Shown one piece after another: positions 1,393 through 17,992 of a stretch of 26,212 nucleotides of DNA. This DNA comes from Candidatus Woesearchaeota archaeon (GTDB taxonomy: Archaea > Nanobdellota > Nanobdellia > Woesearchaeales > GW2011-AR4). Position numbers and translations under genes: made by a program. Every line of letters starts with the position of its first letter. Position 1 is the first letter of the stretch. The DNA lies in the NCBI GenBank assembly GCA_016181305.1, contig JACOZN010000003.1, positions 1 to 26,212 of the forward strand, in the 5' to 3' direction. The notes beneath the pieces were generated by a model. The model worked only from the letters and a program-made list of their open reading frames with translations. It was not told the DNA's origin and searched no databases.

Positions 1393-4300
1393 ATGTTCAA
1401 AAACTACGATGCCGTGAACCAGGAGCCTGAAATGCTGAAGTTCTGGAAAGAGCATAAAATCTATGAAAAGGCTAAGGAAAAAAATAAAGGCAAAGAGAAG
1501 TTCTACTTCTTGGACGGCCCGCCGTACACCTCGGGAAAAGTGCACCTTGGGACAGCATGGAATAAGTCACTGAAGGACTGCTTTTTGCGCTACAAGAGAA
1601 TGAACGGCTTTGATGTCTGGGACAGGGCAGGATATGACATGCACGGGCTTCCCATAGAGCACCAGGTAATCAAAAAATTCAATCTTGAGACAAAAAAAGA
1701 CATCGAGAAATTCGGCGTTGCAAGGTTCATAAACGAATGCATGGAATTTGCAATAGAGTCCATGCAGTCCATGAACAGGGATTTCCTGAGATTGGGGGCA
1801 TGGATGGACTTTGAGAATGCCTACATGCCAATAGTGCCTGAAAGCATAGAATCAATATGGTGGCTCATCAAAAAAGTCCACGGGCAGAAAAGGCTTTATG
1901 AAGGCTTCAGGACAATGACTTGGTGCGCAAGCTGCGAAACTGCACTGGCAAAGCACGAATTAAATTACAGGGAAGTAAAAGACCATTCAATCTTTCTCAA
2001 ATTCAAAATCAAGGATAAAGCCAATGAGTTTTTGATAGTATGGACTACAACTCCATGGACCATCCCTTTCAATCTTGGCGTTATGGCAAACCCGGATGTT
2101 GCTTACATAAAAGCAAAAGTTGGCAATGAGCATTGGATAATTGCAAAGGACCTGTCTTATGCATTAATTTCCGATATGCTCGGCAAAAAAGTTGAAATTG
2201 TTGAGGAGTTCAATGGAAAAAGCCTTGAAGGCATTGAGTATGTTCCGGCGCTCTATAGTGAGCTGCGCCAGATATATGATGATATAAAGAGCAAATCCCG
2301 GAAAACCCACACTATTGTTCTGTCATCGGAGTACGTTGACACTTCAACAGGTACCGGGTTGGTGCACATGGCTCCCGGCTGCGGGCCTGAGGATTATGAA
2401 GTCGGGCACCGCAATAATATACCGCCTTTCAACAACCTCGACGAGAGGGGGATTTTCCCGGATGAAATGGGAGCTTTTGCAGGATTCACAGCCAAAAAAG
2501 ACGACTCAAGATTCGTGGAGCATTTCAGGAAAAACGGCTCGCTGGTTGCAGAGTCAAAGCTGGAGCACGACTATGCCCACTGCTGGCGGTGCAACAGCCC
2601 AATAATATACCGGGCAACAAAGCAGTGGTTCTTCAGGGTTGAGGATTTGAAAAGCAATATGCTTGATGAGAACAAAAAAATAAAATGGATTCCGAAGGCA
2701 AGCTTTAACGCCTTTGAGTCATGGCTCGGCAATCTCCGCGACAACTCCATAACAAAGCAGCGCTTCTGGGGCACTCCGCTGCCTGTCTGGCGATGCAGCA
2801 AATGCATGGAATTTGATGTTTTGTCGTCAAGGGACGAAATAAGAAAAGCTGCAGGAAAAGTTCCCGAGAAGCTCCACAAGCCGTGGATAGACGAAATAAA
2901 ATACGCATGCAAATGCGGCGGCACAAAAGAAAGAATCCCTGACATTATGGACGTGTGGATTGACCCGGGATGCGCTTCATGGATTTGCCTTAACTACCCC
3001 CAGCAGACAAAGCTGTTTGATGGGATGTTCCCGGCTGACTTCATCTTGGAAGGAATAGACCAGTACAGGGGCTGGTTTAATGTCCTGATGGTTTGCTCCA
3101 TGCTTGCATTCAGGAAGACATCATTCAAATCATGCTATGTCCACGGCTTCATAAACGACGCGCAGGGCAGGAAGATGAGCAAAAGCCTCGGAAACTACAT
3201 CCTGCCGCAGGAAGTCATAATGGAATACGGCGCAGACACTTTGAGGCACTACATGATAGGCGGCGCTTCCCCGGGAGTTGATATCAACTACAACTTTGAT
3301 GACATGAAAGTCAAGCACAAGAACTTGACTGTTCTCTGGAATCTCCATAAATTTGTGATGGACATGGCTAAGAACCTCAAAATAAACCCGGGCAGTTTAA
3401 AGGGGCATAATTTTGACGTTGAGGAGAGGTATATATTCTCCAAATTGAATTCAACAATAAAAAAAGTCAGCGAATTGCTTGAAGAGTGCAGGCTCAATGA
3501 AGTGCCGTGGAAAGTCGAGGAGCTGTTTTTGGAATTAAGCAGGGCTTACATACAGCTTACAAGGGACAAGGCGTCAATGGGCAGCGACGAGGAGAAAAAA
3601 GCCGTGCTTTACGCAGTGTTTAATGTCTTACTGGAAACCATGAAGTTATTTGCCCCGGTTGCGCCTTTCATAACAGAAATTATGTACCAGAACCTGAGGC
3701 AGGAATTCAGGCTCAAGGAGGAAAGCATCCACCTGTTTGGGTGGCCAAAGCACAGCGAAGAGCTTATTGACGCAAATCTTGAGGAGTCAATGCAGTTTGC
3801 CTCTGAAATCGTGCAGGGCGCGCTTGCTGTGAGGGAAAAAATCCAGCTTGGAGTGAGGTGGCCTGTAAAGGAGATTGTGATAGCCTCAAAAGATGAAAAA
3901 GCTGCTGATGCAGTAAAAATGCTCAGGGACGTGATAAAAAAGCAGGTAAACGCCAAAGAAATAAGGGTAGTGGAGTCAATGCCGAATTTGAAGGTAAAGG
4001 TGAAAGCCGACTACTCGAAGCTCGGGCCTGAATTCGGGGACAAGTCGCCGAAGATAATCGCGCAGCTCACAATTGACAGCCCGGAAACAGTGCTGAGGCA
4101 GATACAGGAAAAGGGAAAGTACTCTGCCAATATAGACGGGGAAGATTTGGAGATAAAAAAAGAGCACCTGATTGTGGAAAGGGAAGCCCCATTGCCTTAT
4201 GAAGAGGGTGTTTTCAAGAACGGCTTTATTTACCTTAACAGGGAAATGAGTGATGAGCTCGAAGCCGAGGGCTTTGCGCGGGAAGTCATGAGACGGGTGC

Positions 4301-10616: not shown

Positions 10617-11078
10617 ATGCCGTCAGAACTCATCAAAAGGCAGAAAGGCGATTTCTTTCGCGACTTCAGCGCATTGGGAAGCCTATGGATTTATGCAGCT
10701 GCAGCTTTATTTTTGCTTGCCTTTAAGAATTATGAATTGCTCAAGAAGCTTGCAGCCGGCTTGGTTTTGATTTATGCGATAGTTATAGCCGTAAGAACAT
10801 TTTACTTTAAGGAAAGGCCGCATAAATACCCCCATAACTCCTACATTGAAAAGCTTGACGCATCGTCCTTTCCAAGCCTTCATTCGGCAAGGACTGCCTT
10901 TTTAGCTGCTGTTTTTGTTGGCTATTTTAATAATGCCATGTCATCCATCTTGCTCATTTTGATGGCCCTGATTATATTGTATTCAAGGATTTACCTTAAA
11001 AAGCATGATTACAGGGACATATTGGCTGGAGTTATTGTCGGGATTATTGTTTATTTTACCATAAACTTTATATATTAG
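10617..11078 (+). CDS. PAP2-superfamily membrane phosphatase
   Basis: KERP, SFPSLHS, SRIYLKKHDYRDILAG; several TM segments; TATA TTTAAATA at 10586-10593. Confidence 0.88.
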   Translation: MPSELIKRQKGDFFRDFSALGSLWIYAAAALFLLAFKNYELLKKLAAGLVLIYAIVIAVRTFYFKERPHKYPHNSYIEKLDASSFPSLHSARTAFLAAVFVGYFNNAMSSILLILMALIILYSRIYLKKHDYRDILAGVIVGIIVYFTINFIY

Positions 11079-11092
11079 TTAACAATTGTTAA
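11067..11092 (+). promoter_or_regulatory. TATA box plus perfect 14-bp palindrome (candidate operator) of the HTH-suf operon
   Basis: TTTATATA at 11067-11074; TTAACAATTGTTAA at 11079-11092; ATG at 11098. Confidence 0.6.
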
Positions 11093-11097
11093 GTGCC

Positions 11098-11496
11098 ATG
11101 CAAGAAACAATGCCGCAGGAAGTTGAAGTCAGGTATATTCTGCCAGCCATACGGAGAGAGCTTGCAAGAATCTTCATTGAAGAGTATAATCTCAGCCAGA
11201 AAGAGGCTGCAAAAATCCTTGGCTTGACAGAGGCTGCAATTTCCCAGTACCGGCACTCGAAAAGGGCAAAGGAAGTCGTGTTTAGCGACAAGGCAATTAT
11301 GGAGATAAAAGTGTCTGCAGCCAAAATTCTCGCAGAAAAGAGCAACAGGCAGAGGGTTATAGCAGAGATGTACAGGATAAGCAACCTCACAACAGTGAAG
11401 CAGATATTATGCGACATACACAGGCAGCAATCCAAGGAATTGGGAAATTGCAATGTCTGCTTTGATGAGGGATTGATAGCAATAAAGACAGATTAA
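11098..11496 (+). CDS. archaeal XRE-like HTH regulator (COG2522-like) with C-terminal C-x2-H-x9-C-x2-C motif
   Basis: PQEVEVRYILPAIRRELA, LSQKEAAKILGLTEAAISQY, LCDIHRQQSKELGNCNVCF; first ATG 11098. Confidence 0.82.
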   Translation: MQETMPQEVEVRYILPAIRRELARIFIEEYNLSQKEAAKILGLTEAAISQYRHSKRAKEVVFSDKAIMEIKVSAAKILAEKSNRQRVIAEMYRISNLTTVKQILCDIHRQQSKELGNCNVCFDEGLIAIKTD

Positions 11497-11508: not shown

Positions 11509-12918
11509 ATGCCGCCAGCAGCCACAGAGCAGGTTTTTGACAAGGACTATAGCAGGTATGGATTTCACGATAAGGAAGAGTATGTCTTCAAGTCGCAGAA
11601 AGGGCTGTCAAGGGAAATAGTCGAGCAAATATCCAAGATAAAAAAAGAGCCTGAATGGATGTTGAAATTAAGATTAAAGGCTCTGGAAGAGTTCTGGAAA
11701 AGGCCAATGCCGCAGTGGGGCGCTAACCTTAACATTATAGACTTCAATGACATTTATTATTATCTGAAACCAACTGACAGGCAGGGTGACACCTGGGATG
11801 ATGTGCCTGAATACATAAAAAACACCTTCACAAAGCTTGGAATTCCTGAAGCAGAGCAGAAATTTCTTGGAGGCGTGGGCGCCCAGTACGAAAGTGAAGT
11901 GGTTTACCACAAGATAAGGGAGGACCTGGAAAAGAAAGGCGTTGTTTTCCTTGACATGGACGGCGGCTTAAGGGAGTATCCTGAAATTGTAAAAAAATAT
12001 TTTTGCTCAGTCATACCTTACAATGACAACAAGTTTGCTGCATTGAACACAGCAGTCTGGAGCGGCGGCTCGTTTGTTTACGTTCCAGCAGGAGTCAAAG
12101 TTGACTTGCCTTTGCAGGCTTACTTCAGGATAAACGCAAGGAACATGGGGCAGTTTGAAAGAACGCTGATAATAGCGGAGCCGGGCTCGAGTGTGCATTA
12201 CATAGAGGGTTGCACAGCCCCAACATATTCTTCAGATTCGCTGCACAGCGCTGTAGTCGAACTGATAGCTATGGAAGGCTCAAGAATCCAGTACACCACA
12301 ATCCAAAACTGGAGCAGCAATGTCTATAATCTTGTCACAAAAAGGGCTTTTGCACATAAGGATGCAACTGTCTTCTGGGTTGACGGCAACCTAGGAAGTA
12401 AAATCACAATGAAATACCCAAGCGTTTATTTGCTTGGAGAAAGGGCAAAAGCCGAGATTTTGAGCGTGGCTTTTGCAGGCAAAGGGCAGCACCAGGATGC
12501 AGGCGGAAAGATTTTGCACCTTGCTCCCAACACAACATCAAGGATTACATCAAAATCAGTCAGCAAGGACGGCGGAAGGACAACATACAGGGGCTTGATT
12601 CATGTTGCAGAAGGCTGCAAAAATGTCAAGAGCCATGTCACTTGCGATGCGTTGATTTTGGACGAGCAGTCCGCTTCCGACACAGTCCCTTACATGGAAA
12701 TAAACGAAAAGGATGTTACAATAGAGCACGAGGCAACTGTAGGCAAGATTGGGGAAGAGCAGCTTTTTTACCTCATGAGCAGGGGCCTGAGCGACGATCA
12801 GGCAAAGACAATGATTGTCTCAGGGTTTATGGAGCCTTTCACAAAAGAATTGCCTCTTGAATACGCAATTGAGCTCAACAGGCTGATTGCGCTGAGCATG
12901 GAAGGTTCTGTAGGTTAA
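11509..12918 (+). CDS. sufB: Fe-S cluster assembly scaffold SufB
   Basis: [55 protein letters not shown]. Confidence 0.97.
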
Positions 12919-12930
12919 TTTGGGGGTTTT

Positions 12931-14124
12931 ATGCCAGATCAAAATCTTGTTACGAAAAAATCTATGGAATTGAAGCAATTTCAAAGCAGCTTTGCGGAAG
13001 AAAGGAAAAAAGAAGCCCTGGCTGTGTTCAAGTCAATCCCGATGCCGAAGGAAAAGGACGAGGATTGGAGGTATACCGATATCGGAAAATTAAGGCTTGA
13101 AAGCTTTGAGCCGTTTGAATCAGAAGGCAAAATAAGTGTTTCCGGGTTTTCAGAGTATTTGGCTGAAAAAGGGGTGATTTTGACTGACATAAATACAGCG
13201 CTTCAAAAATATCCAGTGGCGCAGCAGTATTTCCTTAAATCAATGAAAATTGGCGGCGACAAGTTCGCAGCATTAAATGCAGCTTATTTTGGAAATGGGT
13301 TTTTTTTGCATGTGCCAAAAAATATTGAGATAGATGAGCCGATAAAGCTTAATTTTGAGGTTAGCGGAAAAAGCAGCATATTGCACAATATGATTATTGC
13401 TGAATCAAACAGCAAAGTGAATTTTATTGAAGAGTACACAGGCAAGGAAAATGCCAATGGGCAGCTGAACTCCAGCGTTACAGAAGTGTTTGCCAATGCG
13501 GATTCTAAAATAAACTTTTACCACATAAACAACTGGGCGAAAAATGCCTACAGCTTTGCAAATATTGTCGGCAATCTGGACAGAAACTCAAATGTAAACT
13601 GGATTTCTGGTTGCTTTGGGGGCAGATTAAATAGGCTGAAGATTGACACGATTTTCAGCGGCAATGGCGCTTCATGCAGCAACCTCGGCATTTTCATGGG
13701 CAAAGAGAAAGAGCACGTTGACTTTGCAACCAACATGTTCCATAATGCTGAAAACACGACAAATGACGTGCTTGTTGACGGGATTTTAAAGGATGAATCA
13801 TCGTCTGTTTACAGGGGCTTGATTAAGATAGAAAAGCAGGCGCAGAAAACAAACTCCTACCTTGCAAACCACATCCTGAAATTAGGAGACAAAACCTTGG
13901 CAAACAGCATTCCGAGCCTGAAGATTGACGCCAATGATGTAAAAGCCTCCCATGGCGCAACTGTTGGACAGATTAATGAAGAACATCTGTTTTATCTGAT
14001 GGCTCGCGGCTTGTCAAGAGCAGAAGCTGAAAAGCTGATTGTGGAAGGGTTTTTCGAGCCGATAATACAAAAGATTCCTCTTGAAGAATTAAGGGAGAAG
14101 ATAAGGGGGATGGTGGGGGGATAG
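12931..14124 (+). CDS. sufD: Fe-S cluster assembly protein SufD
   Basis: EDWRYTDI, VYRGLIKI, NSIPSLKIDANDVKASHGATVGQI, FYLMARGL; paralogue of SufB. Confidence 0.93.
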   Translation: MPDQNLVTKKSMELKQFQSSFAEERKKEALAVFKSIPMPKEKDEDWRYTDIGKLRLESFEPFESEGKISVSGFSEYLAEKGVILTDINTALQKYPVAQQYFLKSMKIGGDKFAALNAAYFGNGFFLHVPKNIEIDEPIKLNFEVSGKSSILHNMIIAESNSKVNFIEEYTGKENANGQLNSSVTEVFANADSKINFYHINNWAKNAYSFANIVGNLDRNSNVNWISGCFGGRLNRLKIDTIFSGNGASCSNLGIFMGKEKEHVDFATNMFHNAENTTNDVLVDGILKDESSSVYRGLIKIEKQAQKTNSYLANHILKLGDKTLANSIPSLKIDANDVKASHGATVGQINEEHLFYLMARGLSRAEAEKLIVEGFFEPIIQKIPLEELREKIRGMVGG

Positions 14125-14125
14125 A

Positions 14126-14647
14126 ATGAAACCTTTAGAACAAAAAATGGGTGATCCCGTTGCAAGCGCAACAAATCCTCAGTTAGCAGAGCGCCAAAGA
14201 AGGGCCATAGAATTGGCTAGATACGCCCATAACCCGATTTTTAATCCCCTTGAAACAATCCTAAGCAATGCCGAATTATACTTACAAGGCCCGGACAGAA
14301 ATGACTTGATGGAAAGTTCTTATAACCTGCTCAAAAAATTTGAATACTTTTACTCTGAAGATAATATACCTTACAGAACTATGCATAGAAAAGAAGAATT
14401 TTATCACTTGTTTACTGTAAGAGATTTGCTGTTTGAATTAAGAGAGACTATGGACAAAGTATTTGGAGAAAAAAGCGCTAACAGTTTAAAGGAATTGAAT
14501 GTGTATGTGAATTCAATAATCTTGATTGAACGGTTATATTTTAGAAGTTTAATGAAATTGCTGGGGCAAATAAGAATTTATCCTGAAGCAGCTGATTTTA
14601 TGGTTACTGTCCGGGACAGAGACAATGGAATTGAATGCCACTTTTAA
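14126..14647 (+). CDS. AT-rich hypothetical protein with faint similarity to a degenerate histidine-kinase core
   Basis: Fills the sufD-sufS gap with 1-nt spacers on both sides; LARYAHNPIFNPLETILSNAELYL (H-box-like) and MVTVRDRDNGI (G1-like). Confidence 0.6.
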   Translation: MKPLEQKMGDPVASATNPQLAERQRRAIELARYAHNPIFNPLETILSNAELYLQGPDRNDLMESSYNLLKKFEYFYSEDNIPYRTMHRKEEFYHLFTVRDLLFELRETMDKVFGEKSANSLKELNVYVNSIILIERLYFRSLMKLLGQIRIYPEAADFMVTVRDRDNGIECHF

Positions 14648-14648
14648 A

Positions 14649-15878
14649 ATGCCCTCCACAAAACCACTCATGGACGTTGAACAGATAAGAAAAAACTTCC
14701 CTATTTTGCAGAGGAAAGTGCACAATAAGCCATTGGTTTATTTTGACAACGCAGCAACATCCCAGAAGCCAAAACAGGTGATTGAGGCTATTGGCTTTTA
14801 CTACAAAAACTACAATGCCAACATACACAGGAGCATTCACGAGCTGGGCGAGGAGGCGACTGAAAAATACGAGGAAGCGCACAAGAAAACTGCTGATTTC
14901 ATAAATGCAGATTCGTACCAAAACATTGTATTTACCAAGAATACGACAGAAAGCCTGAACCTTTTGGCTTATTCGCTGACTGCAAAGCTGAAAAAAAATG
15001 ATGAGATTGTGGTTTCGCAGATGGAGCACCACAGCAACTTCGTGCCATGGCAGCAATTGGCAAAGCAGAGAGGATTGAGATTAAAGTTTATTGAAATTGA
15101 CAAAGACGGCAATCTGGACAAAAACAGCATTAAAAAGAATATAACCAAAAAAACAAAAATTGTTTCATTGACCCATATTTCAAATGTTTTGGGCACGATA
15201 AATCCTGTTGAAAAAATCGCAAAGATTGCGCATGAAAATGGTGCATTGATGGTTGTTGACGGCGCGCAGGCTGCTCCCCATATGCCTGTTGATGTAAAAA
15301 AGCTTGATGCTGATTTTTATGCCTTTTCAGGGCACAAGATGCTTGGACCGACAGGAATCGGGGTTTTGTACGGCAAAAAAGAGCTGCTTGAGGAAATGCA
15401 GCCGTTTCTTTATGGAGGGGAGATGATACGTGAAGTAAGGTTTGACGACACAAAATTCAATGACTTGCCGTGGAAGTTTGAGGCAGGCACAATGAACATT
15501 GCAGAAGCCATCGGGTTAAGTGCTGCAATTGACTACTTGAACAAAATCGGGATGGACAATGTGCAAAAGCACGATAGGGAGCTTGTTGAATACGCTATGG
15601 GGCAATTGAAAGGCATTGACGGAATAAAGATTTACGGCCCGGATGAAAGGGACGCTGTTATATCATTTAATCTCGGCAATATTCATGCCCATGACGTCGC
15701 TCAGGTTTTGGACAGCGAGGGAGTTGCGATTAGGGCAGGGCACCACTGCTGCATGCCTTTAATGAGTGTTTTGGGTGTGGCAGCAACAGCAAGGGCAAGC
15801 TTTTACCTTTACAATACAGAAAAAGAAATTGATGTTTTTGTAAATGCACTTAATAAAGTGAATAGGGTGTTTGCATAA
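14649..15878 (+). CDS. sufS: group II cysteine desulfurase SufS
   Basis: YFDNAATSQKP, SQMEHHSN, FSGHKMLGPTG (PLP Lys), RAGHHC (catalytic Cys). Start is ATG 14649 or 14670; the ORF-track start at 14625 overlaps the upstream gene. Confidence 0.96.
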   Translation: MPSTKPLMDVEQIRKNFPILQRKVHNKPLVYFDNAATSQKPKQVIEAIGFYYKNYNANIHRSIHELGEEATEKYEEAHKKTADFINADSYQNIVFTKNTTESLNLLAYSLTAKLKKNDEIVVSQMEHHSNFVPWQQLAKQRGLRLKFIEIDKDGNLDKNSIKKNITKKTKIVSLTHISNVLGTINPVEKIAKIAHENGALMVVDGAQAAPHMPVDVKKLDADFYAFSGHKMLGPTGIGVLYGKKELLEEMQPFLYGGEMIREVRFDDTKFNDLPWKFEAGTMNIAEAIGLSAAIDYLNKIGMDNVQKHDRELVEYAMGQLKGIDGIKIYGPDERDAVISFNLGNIHAHDVAQVLDSEGVAIRAGHHCCMPLMSVLGVAATARASFYLYNTEKEIDVFVNALNKVNRVFA

Positions 15879-15879
15879 A

Positions 15880-16272
15880 ATGGATTCAATCGAGGCAATG
15901 TACCAGGAAAACATTTTGGACCATTACAAGAATCCAAGGAATGCAGGAAAAATAGACAAGGCATCAGTTCATCATCACGAATATAATCCTTTGTGCGGCG
16001 ACGAGATTGAGATGTTTTTGGTTATCAAGGACAAAAAGGTTGCTGATGTCAAGTTCCATGGCAGGGGCTGCGCAATCTCGCAGGCAAGCGCCTCAATGCT
16101 GACAGAGGAGATAAAAGGCAAGAGCATTGAGGATCTGAAGAAGCTGACAAAAGAAAACATTTTAGAACTGCTGGGAATTTCCCTTAGCCCTGTAAGGCTG
16201 AAATGCGCATTATTGTCTTTAGATACATTAAAAAACAGCATATTGATTTTTGAGAAATATATTAAGAAATAG
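15880..16272 (+). CDS. sufU: SufU-type (IscU/NifU-N family) sulfur acceptor/scaffold
   Basis: MYQENILDHYKNPRN, NPLCGD, GCAISQASAS, RLKCALL; no LPPVK; directly after sufS (TAAAATG). Confidence 0.9.
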   Translation: MDSIEAMYQENILDHYKNPRNAGKIDKASVHHHEYNPLCGDEIEMFLVIKDKKVADVKFHGRGCAISQASASMLTEEIKGKSIEDLKKLTKENILELLGISLSPVRLKCALLSLDTLKNSILIFEKYIKK

Positions 16273-16284
16273 GTGAACACAAAA

Positions 16285-17040
16285 ATGACAGACGAACTAA
16301 TCGTTAAGGACTTGCACGTGAGCATTGAAGGGCAGAGAATATTGAACGGCGTGAATCTGGTAGTCAAAAAAGGCGAAGTCTGCGCATTGATGGGCCCGAA
16401 TGGCTCAGGCAAAAGCACTTTGGCTTACACCCTGATGGGGCATCCGAAGTACACAGTTGACAAGGGCGAGGCATGGTATAAAGGGCAGAATGTTTTGGAA
16501 TTAAAGCCTGATGAAAGGGCAAAGCTTGGCTTGTTTTTGTCGTTCCAGTACCCTCAGGAGATTCCAGGCGTTTCAGTATCAAACTTCCTTAGGACTGCCT
16601 ACAATGCAGTAAAGCAAAAGCAAATTGCTGTCCCTGATTTTGTGAAACTGCTGAAGGAAAAGATGAAGCTTTTGAAGATAGATGACTCTTTCAGCAGAAG
16701 GTACTTGAACGAGGGATTTTCAGGAGGGGAGAAAAAAAGGGCTGAGATACTGCAGTTGGCTGTTCTGCAGCCAGACATGGCTGTGCTTGACGAGACAGAC
16801 TCAGGCTTGGACATTGACTCTTTAAAAGTTGTTGCAGAGGGCGTTAACACGCTTATAGGGCCAAACACAGGAATTTTGATAATCACCCATTACCAGAGGA
16901 TTTTGAACTATATAACTCCCGACAGGGTTCACATAATGGTAAAGGGCAGGATTGTGAAGAGCGGCGGCAAGGAATTGGCGCATGAGCTTGAAGCGAAAGG
17001 ATATGATGAGATAATAAAAGAGGCTGAGCTTAGCGCTTAA
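16285..17040 (+). CDS. sufC: Fe-S assembly ABC ATPase SufC
   Basis: GPNGSGKSTL, FQYPQEIPGVS, NEGFSGGEKKR, LDETDSGLDID, ITHYQR. ATG 16285 follows SD AGGTGA; GTG 16273 is the alternative start. Confidence 0.96.
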   Translation: MTDELIVKDLHVSIEGQRILNGVNLVVKKGEVCALMGPNGSGKSTLAYTLMGHPKYTVDKGEAWYKGQNVLELKPDERAKLGLFLSFQYPQEIPGVSVSNFLRTAYNAVKQKQIAVPDFVKLLKEKMKLLKIDDSFSRRYLNEGFSGGEKKRAEILQLAVLQPDMAVLDETDSGLDIDSLKVVAEGVNTLIGPNTGILIITHYQRILNYITPDRVHIMVKGRIVKSGGKELAHELEAKGYDEIIKEAELSA

Positions 17041-17081: not shown

Positions 17082-17588
17082 ATGGGAGAAAAATTACAAA
17101 ATATTGGAAAATATGTTCAAGAATATAGCCAGTATGCGAGGGATGGTTTAATAGAACTTTTTGAACATCCCGTTAAACATACTTCTAAAGCACTTAAAGA
17201 TTTGGTACAAGATTATTGGGATGCTGGATTGGGGGTATTGACTGGACTTGCATTGACAGACTCAGTTAGAGAGTTGATCGGTGATCAAGCTGTAATTTCG
17301 TTATATATTGGTGGAACTTTAGTGAGTTTAGGTGCTCCACAGCTAATGTTTATGGTCAAGCAGGAAAATGAAGTTACAAGGACAGTTAGGATAGGCAGAA
17401 ATGCTATGCTTGAATTTGATGTTATTTATACCACAAGTCCCTATTCTACTAATCATCCCATGTATGTTGTTTCTTTATTTGCCTTTGCTACTCTTTTTGA
17501 GTACATAAGAAGAGTTGGAAAAACCCCATCTATTAGAGATTCCCCAACTTATGATGCATTAGAAAATAAACTTCAAAAATCAATTTAA
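17082..17588 (+). CDS. AT-rich hypothetical membrane protein
   Basis: About three hydrophobic segments; its own TATA-like TTTAAAT about 25 nt upstream. Confidence 0.6.
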   Translation: MGEKLQNIGKYVQEYSQYARDGLIELFEHPVKHTSKALKDLVQDYWDAGLGVLTGLALTDSVRELIGDQAVISLYIGGTLVSLGAPQLMFMVKQENEVTRTVRIGRNAMLEFDVIYTTSPYSTNHPMYVVSLFAFATLFEYIRRVGKTPSIRDSPTYDALENKLQKSI

Positions 17589-17597
17589 ATTGAAAAA

Positions 17598-17942
17598 ATG
17601 CAGCAAGAAACAAAAGAACTCATCGTAACCTTGACAGAAAAGGCAGCCAATAAAGTGAAGGCTTTGCTTGAAAAGGAAAACAAGCAGGGATACGGCTTGA
17701 GGGTGGGGGTTACCCCAGGCGGCTGCTCAAGCTACATGTATGACATAGGCTTGGAGAAAGAGCCAAAGCAGGATGACACGGTAATAGAGGAAAAAGGCGT
17801 TAAAGTCTTCATCAATCCAATGAGCATTGAATTCATGAAAGGTTCTACAGTGGACTATCTGGATTCCTTAACAAACGCTGGCTTTAAAATCAACAACCCG
17901 AATGTAAAAACAAGCTGCGGATGCGGGCATAGTGTTGGGTAA
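17598..17942 (+). CDS. iscA: A-type Fe-S carrier (IscA/SufA/ErpA, HesB family)
   Basis: LRVGVTPGGCSSY, GSTVDY, NPNVKTSCGCGHS. Confidence 0.93.
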   Translation: MQQETKELIVTLTEKAANKVKALLEKENKQGYGLRVGVTPGGCSSYMYDIGLEKEPKQDDTVIEEKGVKVFINPMSIEFMKGSTVDYLDSLTNAGFKINNPNVKTSCGCGHSVG

Positions 17943-17992
17943 ATTTTAAAATTTTGATAATATTTATTAATACACCATTATTTCTGCAGAAG

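Follow-up and report, generated by a model that had tools for sequence, protein, structure and literature searches.

The locus analyzed here raises the question of how an archaeon might regulate the genes for its Fe-S cluster assembly machinery. In Candidatus Woesearchaeota archaeon (source genome of 1.07 Mb in 22 contigs, 78% complete), a run of suf genes is led by a small gene encoding a helix-turn-helix (HTH) protein with a Cys/His tail, and a perfect palindrome is located between the TATA box and the start codon of this leading gene. The original prediction, which was made from the sequence alone, interpreted the protein and the palindrome as an autoregulatory repressor sensing Fe-S clusters, or zinc and redox state, and its operator. 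The observation was confirmed, and computation, as far as it reaches, supports the interpretation. It is very likely that the HTH protein and the palindrome constitute a switch for Fe-S assembly, iron uptake, and oxidative-defense genes, although DNA binding is inferred and was not shown.

Layout of the suf locus and its promoter

The following features were identified in the window, which is the whole 26,212-nucleotide stretch of DNA that was analyzed.

11067-11074, + strand: TATA box TTTATATA of the HTH-suf unit, within the 3′ end of the upstream PAP2 gene
11079-11092, no strand assigned: 14-bp palindromic putative operator TTAACAATTGTTAA, with the consensus TTAAC-N-AT-N-GTTAA and the flanks a-V...B-t
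11098-11496, + strand: gene of the 132-aa Cys3His-tailed HTH protein P0001, the candidate repressor
11179-11253, + strand: helix-turn-helix, residues 28-52 of P0001, with the recognition helix TEAAISQY, then K55 and R56
11410-11460, + strand: C105-x2-H108-x9-C118-x2-C121, a candidate metal or cluster site, with conserved ligands
11509-12918, + strand: sufB (TIGR01980, 722 bits)
12931-14124, + strand: sufD (TIGR01981, 258 bits)
14126-14647, + strand: 173-aa ORF inside the suf run, without a Pfam or NCBIfam match
14625-15878, + strand: sufS cysteine desulfurase (TIGR01979, 615 bits)
15871-16272, + strand: sufU (TIGR01994, 120 bits)
16273-17040, + strand: sufC ATPase (TIGR01978, 360 bits)
17598-17942, + strand: A-type Fe-S carrier, Fe-S_biosyn (PF01521, 75.7 bits)

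The elements on which the original prediction was built, namely the TATA box at 11067, the palindrome at 11079-11092, the ATG at 11098, the 12 nt to sufB, and the C-x2-H-x9-C-x2-C tail, were all recovered at these positions. The stop codon of the HTH gene ends at 11496, and the ATG of sufB follows after the 12-nt gap at 11509. Since the upstream PAP2-family gene ends at 11078, the promoter of the HTH-suf unit is embedded in the 3′ end of that gene. Given a distance of about 27 nt from the center of the TATA box to the ATG, the HTH-suf mRNA is probably leaderless. The genes sufB and sufD, the 173-aa ORF, and sufS, sufU, and sufC are closely spaced and all located on the + strand. The 173-aa ORF between sufD and sufS overlaps sufS by 23 nt. 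The A-type carrier gene lies farther downstream, is co-directional with the suf genes, and might be part of the same transcription unit.

Perfect 14-bp palindromes are not rare in this window, which contains six of them versus 2.3 expected under a Markov-1 model. Therefore, the significance of the putative operator has to come from its conservation and genome-wide distribution, and not from palindromy. The five other perfect palindromes are located at 3276, 8663, 17580, 17941, and 23927, and two of these flank the A-type carrier gene, one just upstream (17580-17593) and one at the gene end (17941-17954). The claim that TTAACAATTGTTAA has no second copy in the window also held, as the next-best matches carry 3 mismatches, which corresponds to the chance level.

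The 132-aa HTH protein and its family

P0001 showed similarity to known families only through its HTH. The HTH_3 model (PF01381), whose cut-off is 23 bits, scored 22.3 bits with P0001 and aligned to residues 28-52 alone; the score was 23.4 bits when the neighboring in-frame residues were included. For P0001 by itself, the HTH matches in Pfam and NCBIfam were of the XRE, Cro, and sigma-r4 types and remained below threshold, and the Pfam scan revealed no sensor domain besides the Cys3His tail. Two homologues carry the JGI name 'predicted transcriptional regulator'. The label COG2522-like comes from the original prediction, according to which the repressor role would give such proteins a function. 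A relationship with the MqsA-type Zn + HTH antitoxins (TIGR03830) was considered and rejected at 20.2 bits versus a cut-off of 61.8; the MqsA type has N-terminal CxxCG pairs, whereas the Cys motif of P0001 is C-terminal and of another form.

The AlphaFold2 model of P0001 comprises six helices and is confident (pLDDT 93.6, pTM 0.87), including the Cys3His residues (pLDDT 93-95). The predicted architecture consists of a long N-terminal helix, an XRE-like HTH, and a three-helix C-terminal module carrying the Cys3His site. No whole-fold match was found when the PDB was searched with this model, the best Foldseek hit having an E of 0.85. With VIA-align, the best Z of 5.0 was in the noise range, and the HTH part alone aligned. 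In the single-sequence search of the PDB, no hit reached significance (E 0.41 and 0.73). The best match of the profile search was the lambda-repressor-like protein 28tn (E 1.2e-6), which covered the HTH region only. The fold may be new, but it is itself predicted by a model, and the absence of a whole-fold PDB match is no proof of novelty.

Conservation was assessed in an alignment of 108 diverse representatives with 34-70% identity. C105 and C118 were invariant, while H108 and C121 were conserved in at least 90% of the representatives, the His at position 108 being sometimes exchanged for Cys in homologues. The tail motif C..H/C....C..C was present in 115 of the 119 homologues encoded at the collected loci. 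Ligand conservation, which the original prediction named as a test of its hypothesis, is thus shown by comparison. In the recognition helix and its flanks, Y51 and R56 were invariant and A47, S49, and K55 at least 90% conserved, and the same level of conservation was observed for P6, E8, P16, and R19 of the N-terminal helix.

The word-indexed search returned 474 relatives of P0001 at E ≤ 0.001, and an exhaustive search extended the family to 987 cluster representatives at 50% identity. Since Woesearchaeota or Nanoarchaeota is the annotation of the closest homologues, the source organism is a DPANN archaeon. Within its phylum, 265 of 401 sampled genomes contained a homologue. The protein atlas also lists the labels 'Methanobacteriota' and 'Thermoplasmatota' among the relatives. 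These may stem from mislabelled MAGs, a suspicion based on the many related loci that carry the title 'uncultured Methanosarcinales'. In the phylum of an Aenigmatarchaeota locus, the family profile matched 114 of 121 sampled genomes, and many of these matches belong to a sister subfamily. Its members (Aenigmatarchaeota, L165-L174) have 110-127 aa, a conserved N-terminal Cys ('FCE'), a C-terminal CxxC, and the recognition helix TQPAVSQY, and they carry precomputed PF01381 annotations. Two of ten members of the sister subfamily are encoded directly upstream of sufC-sufB-sufD, and one of ten upstream of AhpC.

Gene linkage, the conserved box, and its distribution

The genomic linkage of the HTH gene was examined in 110 loci, of which 30 were the best of the phylum sample and 80 came from species-representative genomes. 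The locus search started from a 32-sequence subset, and its search pattern favors close relatives. In approximately 94 of these 110 DPANN loci, the HTH gene adjoins sufB, sufC, sufS/iscS-like, sufU/iscU-like, or IscA-like genes, and the association with suf genes that had been named as a further test is thereby shown by comparison, with isc-like linkage included in this count. The arrangements vary: in some loci the HTH gene precedes sufB, sufC, iscS, or sufU in the same direction, whereas in others it diverges from sufB or lies at a distance of up to 3 kb. A linkage that survives such rearrangements is a classic sign of functional coupling. Among full-length homologues in Aenigmatarchaeota, Fe-S genes were linked in 11 of 12 loci. 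A relative from Bathyarchaeia that belongs to the sister subfamily (P0322, 107 aa, L193:4001-4324) is located in an Fe-S-type gene cluster with iscS-like, NifU_N (iscU-like), Fer4/ferredoxin, and Pyr_redox_2 reductase (thioredoxin-reductase-like) genes, a context that hints at a possible Fe-S linkage beyond DPANN.

An unbiased palindrome search in the 120 nt upstream of the homologues recovered TTAAC..GTTAA in most loci. The exact sequence TTAAC-N4-GTTAA was found at the relevant promoter in approximately 93 of the 110 loci, downstream of the TATA box and ahead of the start codon with which the suf unit begins. The conservation of the palindrome upstream of homologues, another test that had been proposed, was therefore confirmed, and at the same promoter position. 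The box precedes whichever gene comes first in the suf unit, be it the HTH gene or sufB, and in most loci it lies on the HTH gene's own promoter. In loci with a divergent or distant HTH gene, the box remains at the sufB promoter in the order TATA, box, approximately 4 nt, and ATG; in the divergent arrangements, it is located upstream of the HTH gene's own TATA box. In homologous loci, the distance from the end of a TATA-like heptamer to the box is usually 6-9 nt, and the box itself ends 2-6 nt upstream of the ATG. This conserved spacing implies leaderless transcripts that start at the edge of the box. The profile of the box has the center N-AT-N between the arms and the flanks a-V...B-t. The arms are conserved as sequence, while the center varies and is often not palindromic, which argues for recognition by a protein and not for an RNA hairpin. 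Both the conservation and the position of the putative operator are thus shown by comparison. They are not universal, since the exact box is retained in only 14 of 25 sequence clusters, and some members have a degenerate box or none.

A search with the loose pattern TTAACNNNNGTTAA showed no enrichment over the reversed control in ten genomes. Since only sites with a central N-AT-N lay at promoters, the refined box TTAAC-N-AT-N-GTTAA was adopted. The source genome contains four exact copies of the refined box versus 0.03 expected, all of them intergenic and each following a TATA box. One precedes the HTH-suf unit, one a gene for a DUF1858 + Fe-S_biosyn (IscA-like) protein followed by AhpC, and one a 68-aa Gly-rich ORF upstream of the gene for an FTR1-family iron permease. 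The fourth copy, TTAACAATTGTTAA at G000:C20:22173 (L032:2674-2687), has no evident target. In other genomes, boxes were found before an FTR1 homologue (G005), a [2Fe-2S] ferredoxin-AhpC-SOD operon (G014), and AhpC (G161). Fe-S assembly, Fe-S carriers, iron uptake, and oxidant defense thus make up the predicted regulon; its composition is shown by comparison in the sense that the boxes lie ahead of these genes, while control by the box is inferred from their positions.

Several details of these sites deserve mention. The 68-aa Gly-rich ORF before FTR1 (L031:9798-10004; G000:C1:36797-37003) has its own Shine-Dalgarno-like AGGTGG and is likely to encode a membrane-bound protein. The nearest long ORF downstream of the C20:22173 box begins after 167 nt and encodes a 505-aa HAD-like hydrolase whose N-terminal 200 aa belong to no family; a small unannotated gene or RNA might lie between this box and the HAD-like gene. 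Boxes with one mismatch occur only twice in the source genome and carry little statistical weight alone. One of them, TTAACAATTGTGAA (L176:2793-2806; G000:C15:119292), is located between the TATA box and the ATG of a gene for a B12-binding radical SAM protein, which diverges from a second B12-radical SAM gene. In two unrelated genomes, TTAACCATAGTTAA-type boxes precede wHTH+NTP_transf_2 genes (L146:1501-1534 in G024 and L199:1555-1568 in G012); in G024, these boxes are arranged in tandem, and HEPN accompanies the wHTH+NTP_transf_2 gene. They could represent a similar operator of the wHTH-nucleotidyltransferase factor itself, or cross-talk with the Fe-S regulon.

The co-occurrence of protein and box was examined in 20 genomes with the HTH protein and 20 without it, taken in list order and mostly from one order. 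The refined box was present in 15 of the 20 genomes with the protein (20 sites, versus 3 sites for the reversed-pattern control). It was present in 3 of the 20 genomes without the protein (3 sites, control 3), where all sites were inside long ORFs, corresponding to the chance level. Twelve of the 14 sites examined in genomes with the protein were located at HTH/suf promoters, and one more at an iscS-like operon. Conversely, 10 sufB loci from genomes without the protein had no box within 1.5 kb, even with one mismatch allowed. The co-occurrence is shown by comparison; since related genomes are not independent, the counts demonstrate consistency and do not amount to a formal test. The unpublished genomes G360 (among the 20 without the protein) and G333 (among the 265 matches) did not affect the conclusions, which were unchanged when both were left out.

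Other small regulators were observed before sufB in two genomes of the same order as the source genome, G007 and G015, both lacking the Cys3His HTH protein. An ArsR-type 99-aa protein ending in CPVCP (L113:1179-1478) and a 169-aa HTH_11 protein whose C-terminal half is rich in Cys (L118:968-1477) are each encoded directly upstream of sufB, and neither locus has a TTAAC box. These cases appear to reflect a non-orthologous displacement of the suf regulator.

Proposed switch, rival explanations, and relation to known regulators

According to our main reading, to which we assign a probability of about 0.5, P0001 would be a dimeric, autoregulated repressor that senses an Fe-S cluster or iron at its Cys3His site. 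The HTHs of the homodimer would read the half-sites TTAAC and GTTAA, whose centers are 9 bp apart. Bound between the TATA box and the leaderless start, the protein would keep RNA polymerase from being recruited to the HTH-sufBD-x-SUC unit. The operon of the IscA-like carrier and AhpC, as well as the FTR1 permease, would come under the same control via copies of the box, which in relatives also lies ahead of AhpC, SOD, and [2Fe-2S] ferredoxin genes. The signal would be read at the conserved Cys3His site, where a labile Fe-S cluster or iron would license DNA binding. Shortage of iron or Fe-S clusters, or oxidants, would then lead to loss of the cluster and to derepression of suf, the carriers, FTR1, and AhpC/SOD. 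The Cys3His site is inferred to be the sensor because P0001 has no other candidate sensor domain, and an Fe-S or iron cofactor is preferred because the whole regulon then makes sense and because IscR is also Cys3His-ligated. As there are no experimental binding or cofactor data, DNA binding, repression, dimerization, and the identity of the cofactor likewise remain inferences, so that the autoregulatory repressor of the original prediction is supported by comparison only. The main reading is further limited by the incomplete retention of the exact box among sequence clusters, the exact box without a target, and the similar boxes before wHTH-nucleotidyltransferase genes.

The serious rival leaves the repressor-operator pair unchanged and places zinc in the Cys3His site. 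The zinc might serve a thiol redox switch that lets go of both the metal and the DNA upon oxidation, in the manner of RsrA, a ZAS anti-sigma factor whose zinc is bound at a Cys3His site. Alternatively, it might be purely structural, with the signal read elsewhere, e.g., via a partner protein. CxxH/CxxC pairs in which the His is sometimes a Cys have a zinc-knuckle or rubredoxin-like geometry, and such pairs are common at mononuclear zinc sites. At the Cys3His residues, the model is ordered with very high confidence, as is usual for structural zinc sites, although clustering of the ligands in the model was not checked, and the presence of AhpC and SOD among the targets would suit an oxidant sensor. 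On the other hand, control of an iron permease in two families, together with Fe-S carriers, points more readily to the sensing of iron or Fe-S clusters than to that of oxidants alone, and the lack of any further sensor domain in P0001 also counts against zinc. We therefore regard the zinc version as possible. That P0001 binds the box as an activator or dual regulator appears very unlikely. The divergent loci would allow it, since the box upstream of the HTH gene's TATA box occupies a position from which archaeal factors can activate, but at every suf-side promoter the box lies between TATA and start, 2-6 nt from the ATG, which is the position of an archaeal repressor.

Two further rivals deny P0001 its operator. 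The palindrome might be bound by another factor, such as a DtxR-like or Fur-like protein, with the HTH protein serving some other function and merely being carried along in the suf operon. The source genome does encode an Fe_dep_repress-family protein (64.7 bits) and a weak Fur-like match, and control of iron permeases is typical of DtxR and Fur. Against this, the box tracks the presence and absence of the HTH gene and lies at that gene's own promoter in most loci, and a 14-bp dyad fits a small HTH dimer and is unlike the known boxes of DtxR or Fur. Moreover, DtxR exceeded the cut-off in only 4 of the 40 sampled genomes, just 2 of which belong to the 20 with the HTH protein, and 15 of these 20 bear the box; DtxR therefore cannot explain the box, and we consider this rival very improbable. 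The remaining possibility, that the palindrome is a chance feature or forms an RNA hairpin, draws some support from the excess of perfect palindromes in the window. It is all but ruled out by the retention of the arm sequences around a variable, often non-palindromic center, by the location of the box upstream of the inferred transcription start, and by its fourfold occurrence in the source genome at an expectation of 0.03.

Among known systems, the repressor-operator reading is closest in layout to SufR (COG2345), the [4Fe-4S] regulator of cyanobacteria and actinobacteria, which heads the suf operon and represses itself and suf via a promoter palindrome (bioRxiv 10.64898/2025.12.26.696629; PMC6034842). 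The DNA-binding domain of SufR comprises a winged HTH and a central GRP AT-hook; in a separate, C-terminal sensor domain, three widely spaced Cys (C179, C192, and C220 in M. tuberculosis) and a Glu hold the cluster (bioRxiv 10.64898/2025.12.26.696629). P0001 shares the position at the head of the suf operon, the promoter palindrome, and, by inference, sensing through a Cys-ligated cofactor. It differs from SufR in its size of 132 aa, its XRE-like HTH in place of a winged HTH, its CxxH-x9-CxxC tail, and its operator, TTAAC-N4-GTTAA instead of CAAC-N6-GTTG; the GRP motif is absent from its sequence, and no SufR-like match was found in the Pfam, NCBIfam, or PDB profile searches. Putative archaeal SufR homologues (COG2345) upstream of suf operons have been mentioned (bioRxiv 10.64898/2025.12.26.696629), and these belong to a family different from that of P0001.

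IscR, the bacterial [2Fe-2S] regulator of the Rrf2 family, likewise has Cys3His ligands and controls Fe-S operons including its own, with cluster occupancy reporting Fe-S demand, a logic resembling that proposed for P0001. Its Rrf2 winged-helix fold and ligand spacing are unlike those of P0001, which had no Rrf2 (PF02082) match at E ≤ 0.01. No Rrf2 protein exceeded the cut-off anywhere in the source genome, where the two sub-cut-off matches were both located elsewhere. The claim that the protein resembles neither SufR nor IscR/Rrf2 thus held in the Pfam, NCBIfam, and PDB profile searches and in the comparison of features. RirA, a [4Fe-4S] Rrf2 protein of rhizobia, couples Fe-S status to the repression of iron-uptake genes (PMC13066941), a coupling that the FTR1 boxes suggest for P0001 as well, although RirA is bacterial, from an unrelated family, and has another operator. 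Archaeal repressors such as MDR1 and Phr bind between TATA and start and block the recruitment of RNA polymerase; the operator position is the same here, while the protein families and signals differ. Cro/cI-type (HTH_3) repressors act on 14-bp dyads as small HTH dimers with half-sites about one helical turn apart, as proposed for P0001, which has in addition the long N-terminal helix and the three-helix C-terminal Cys3His module. The P0001 system thus appears as a functional counterpart of bacterial SufR and IscR built on an unrelated protein.

No paper describing the P0001 family or the TTAAC-N4-GTTAA box was found in the literature searched. Neither did the searchable papers contain a characterized regulator dedicated to Fe-S biogenesis in Archaea, apart from the putative SufR homologues. 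A bolder reading, for which the evidence at hand does not quite suffice to tip the balance, is that P0001 represents a large undescribed archaeal family in which an XRE-like HTH bears a new cluster-binding module for sensing Fe-S clusters or iron. This family would span the sampled DPANN phyla (Nanoarchaeota and Aenigmatarchaeota), with a relative in Bathyarchaeia, and would provide Archaea with a dedicated regulator of Fe-S homeostasis, convergent with IscR, SufR, and RirA.

The finding supplies a concrete protein, a defined 14-bp putative operator, and a small predicted regulon of suf or isc-like genes, an A-type carrier, FTR1 iron uptake, AhpC, SOD, and ferredoxin. Consequently, the way in which archaea match Fe-S supply to demand becomes directly testable. 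If the proposal is true, a new fold would join the few known metal- or cluster-sensing transcription factors, and automated regulon annotation would become feasible in hundreds of uncultured DPANN genomes.
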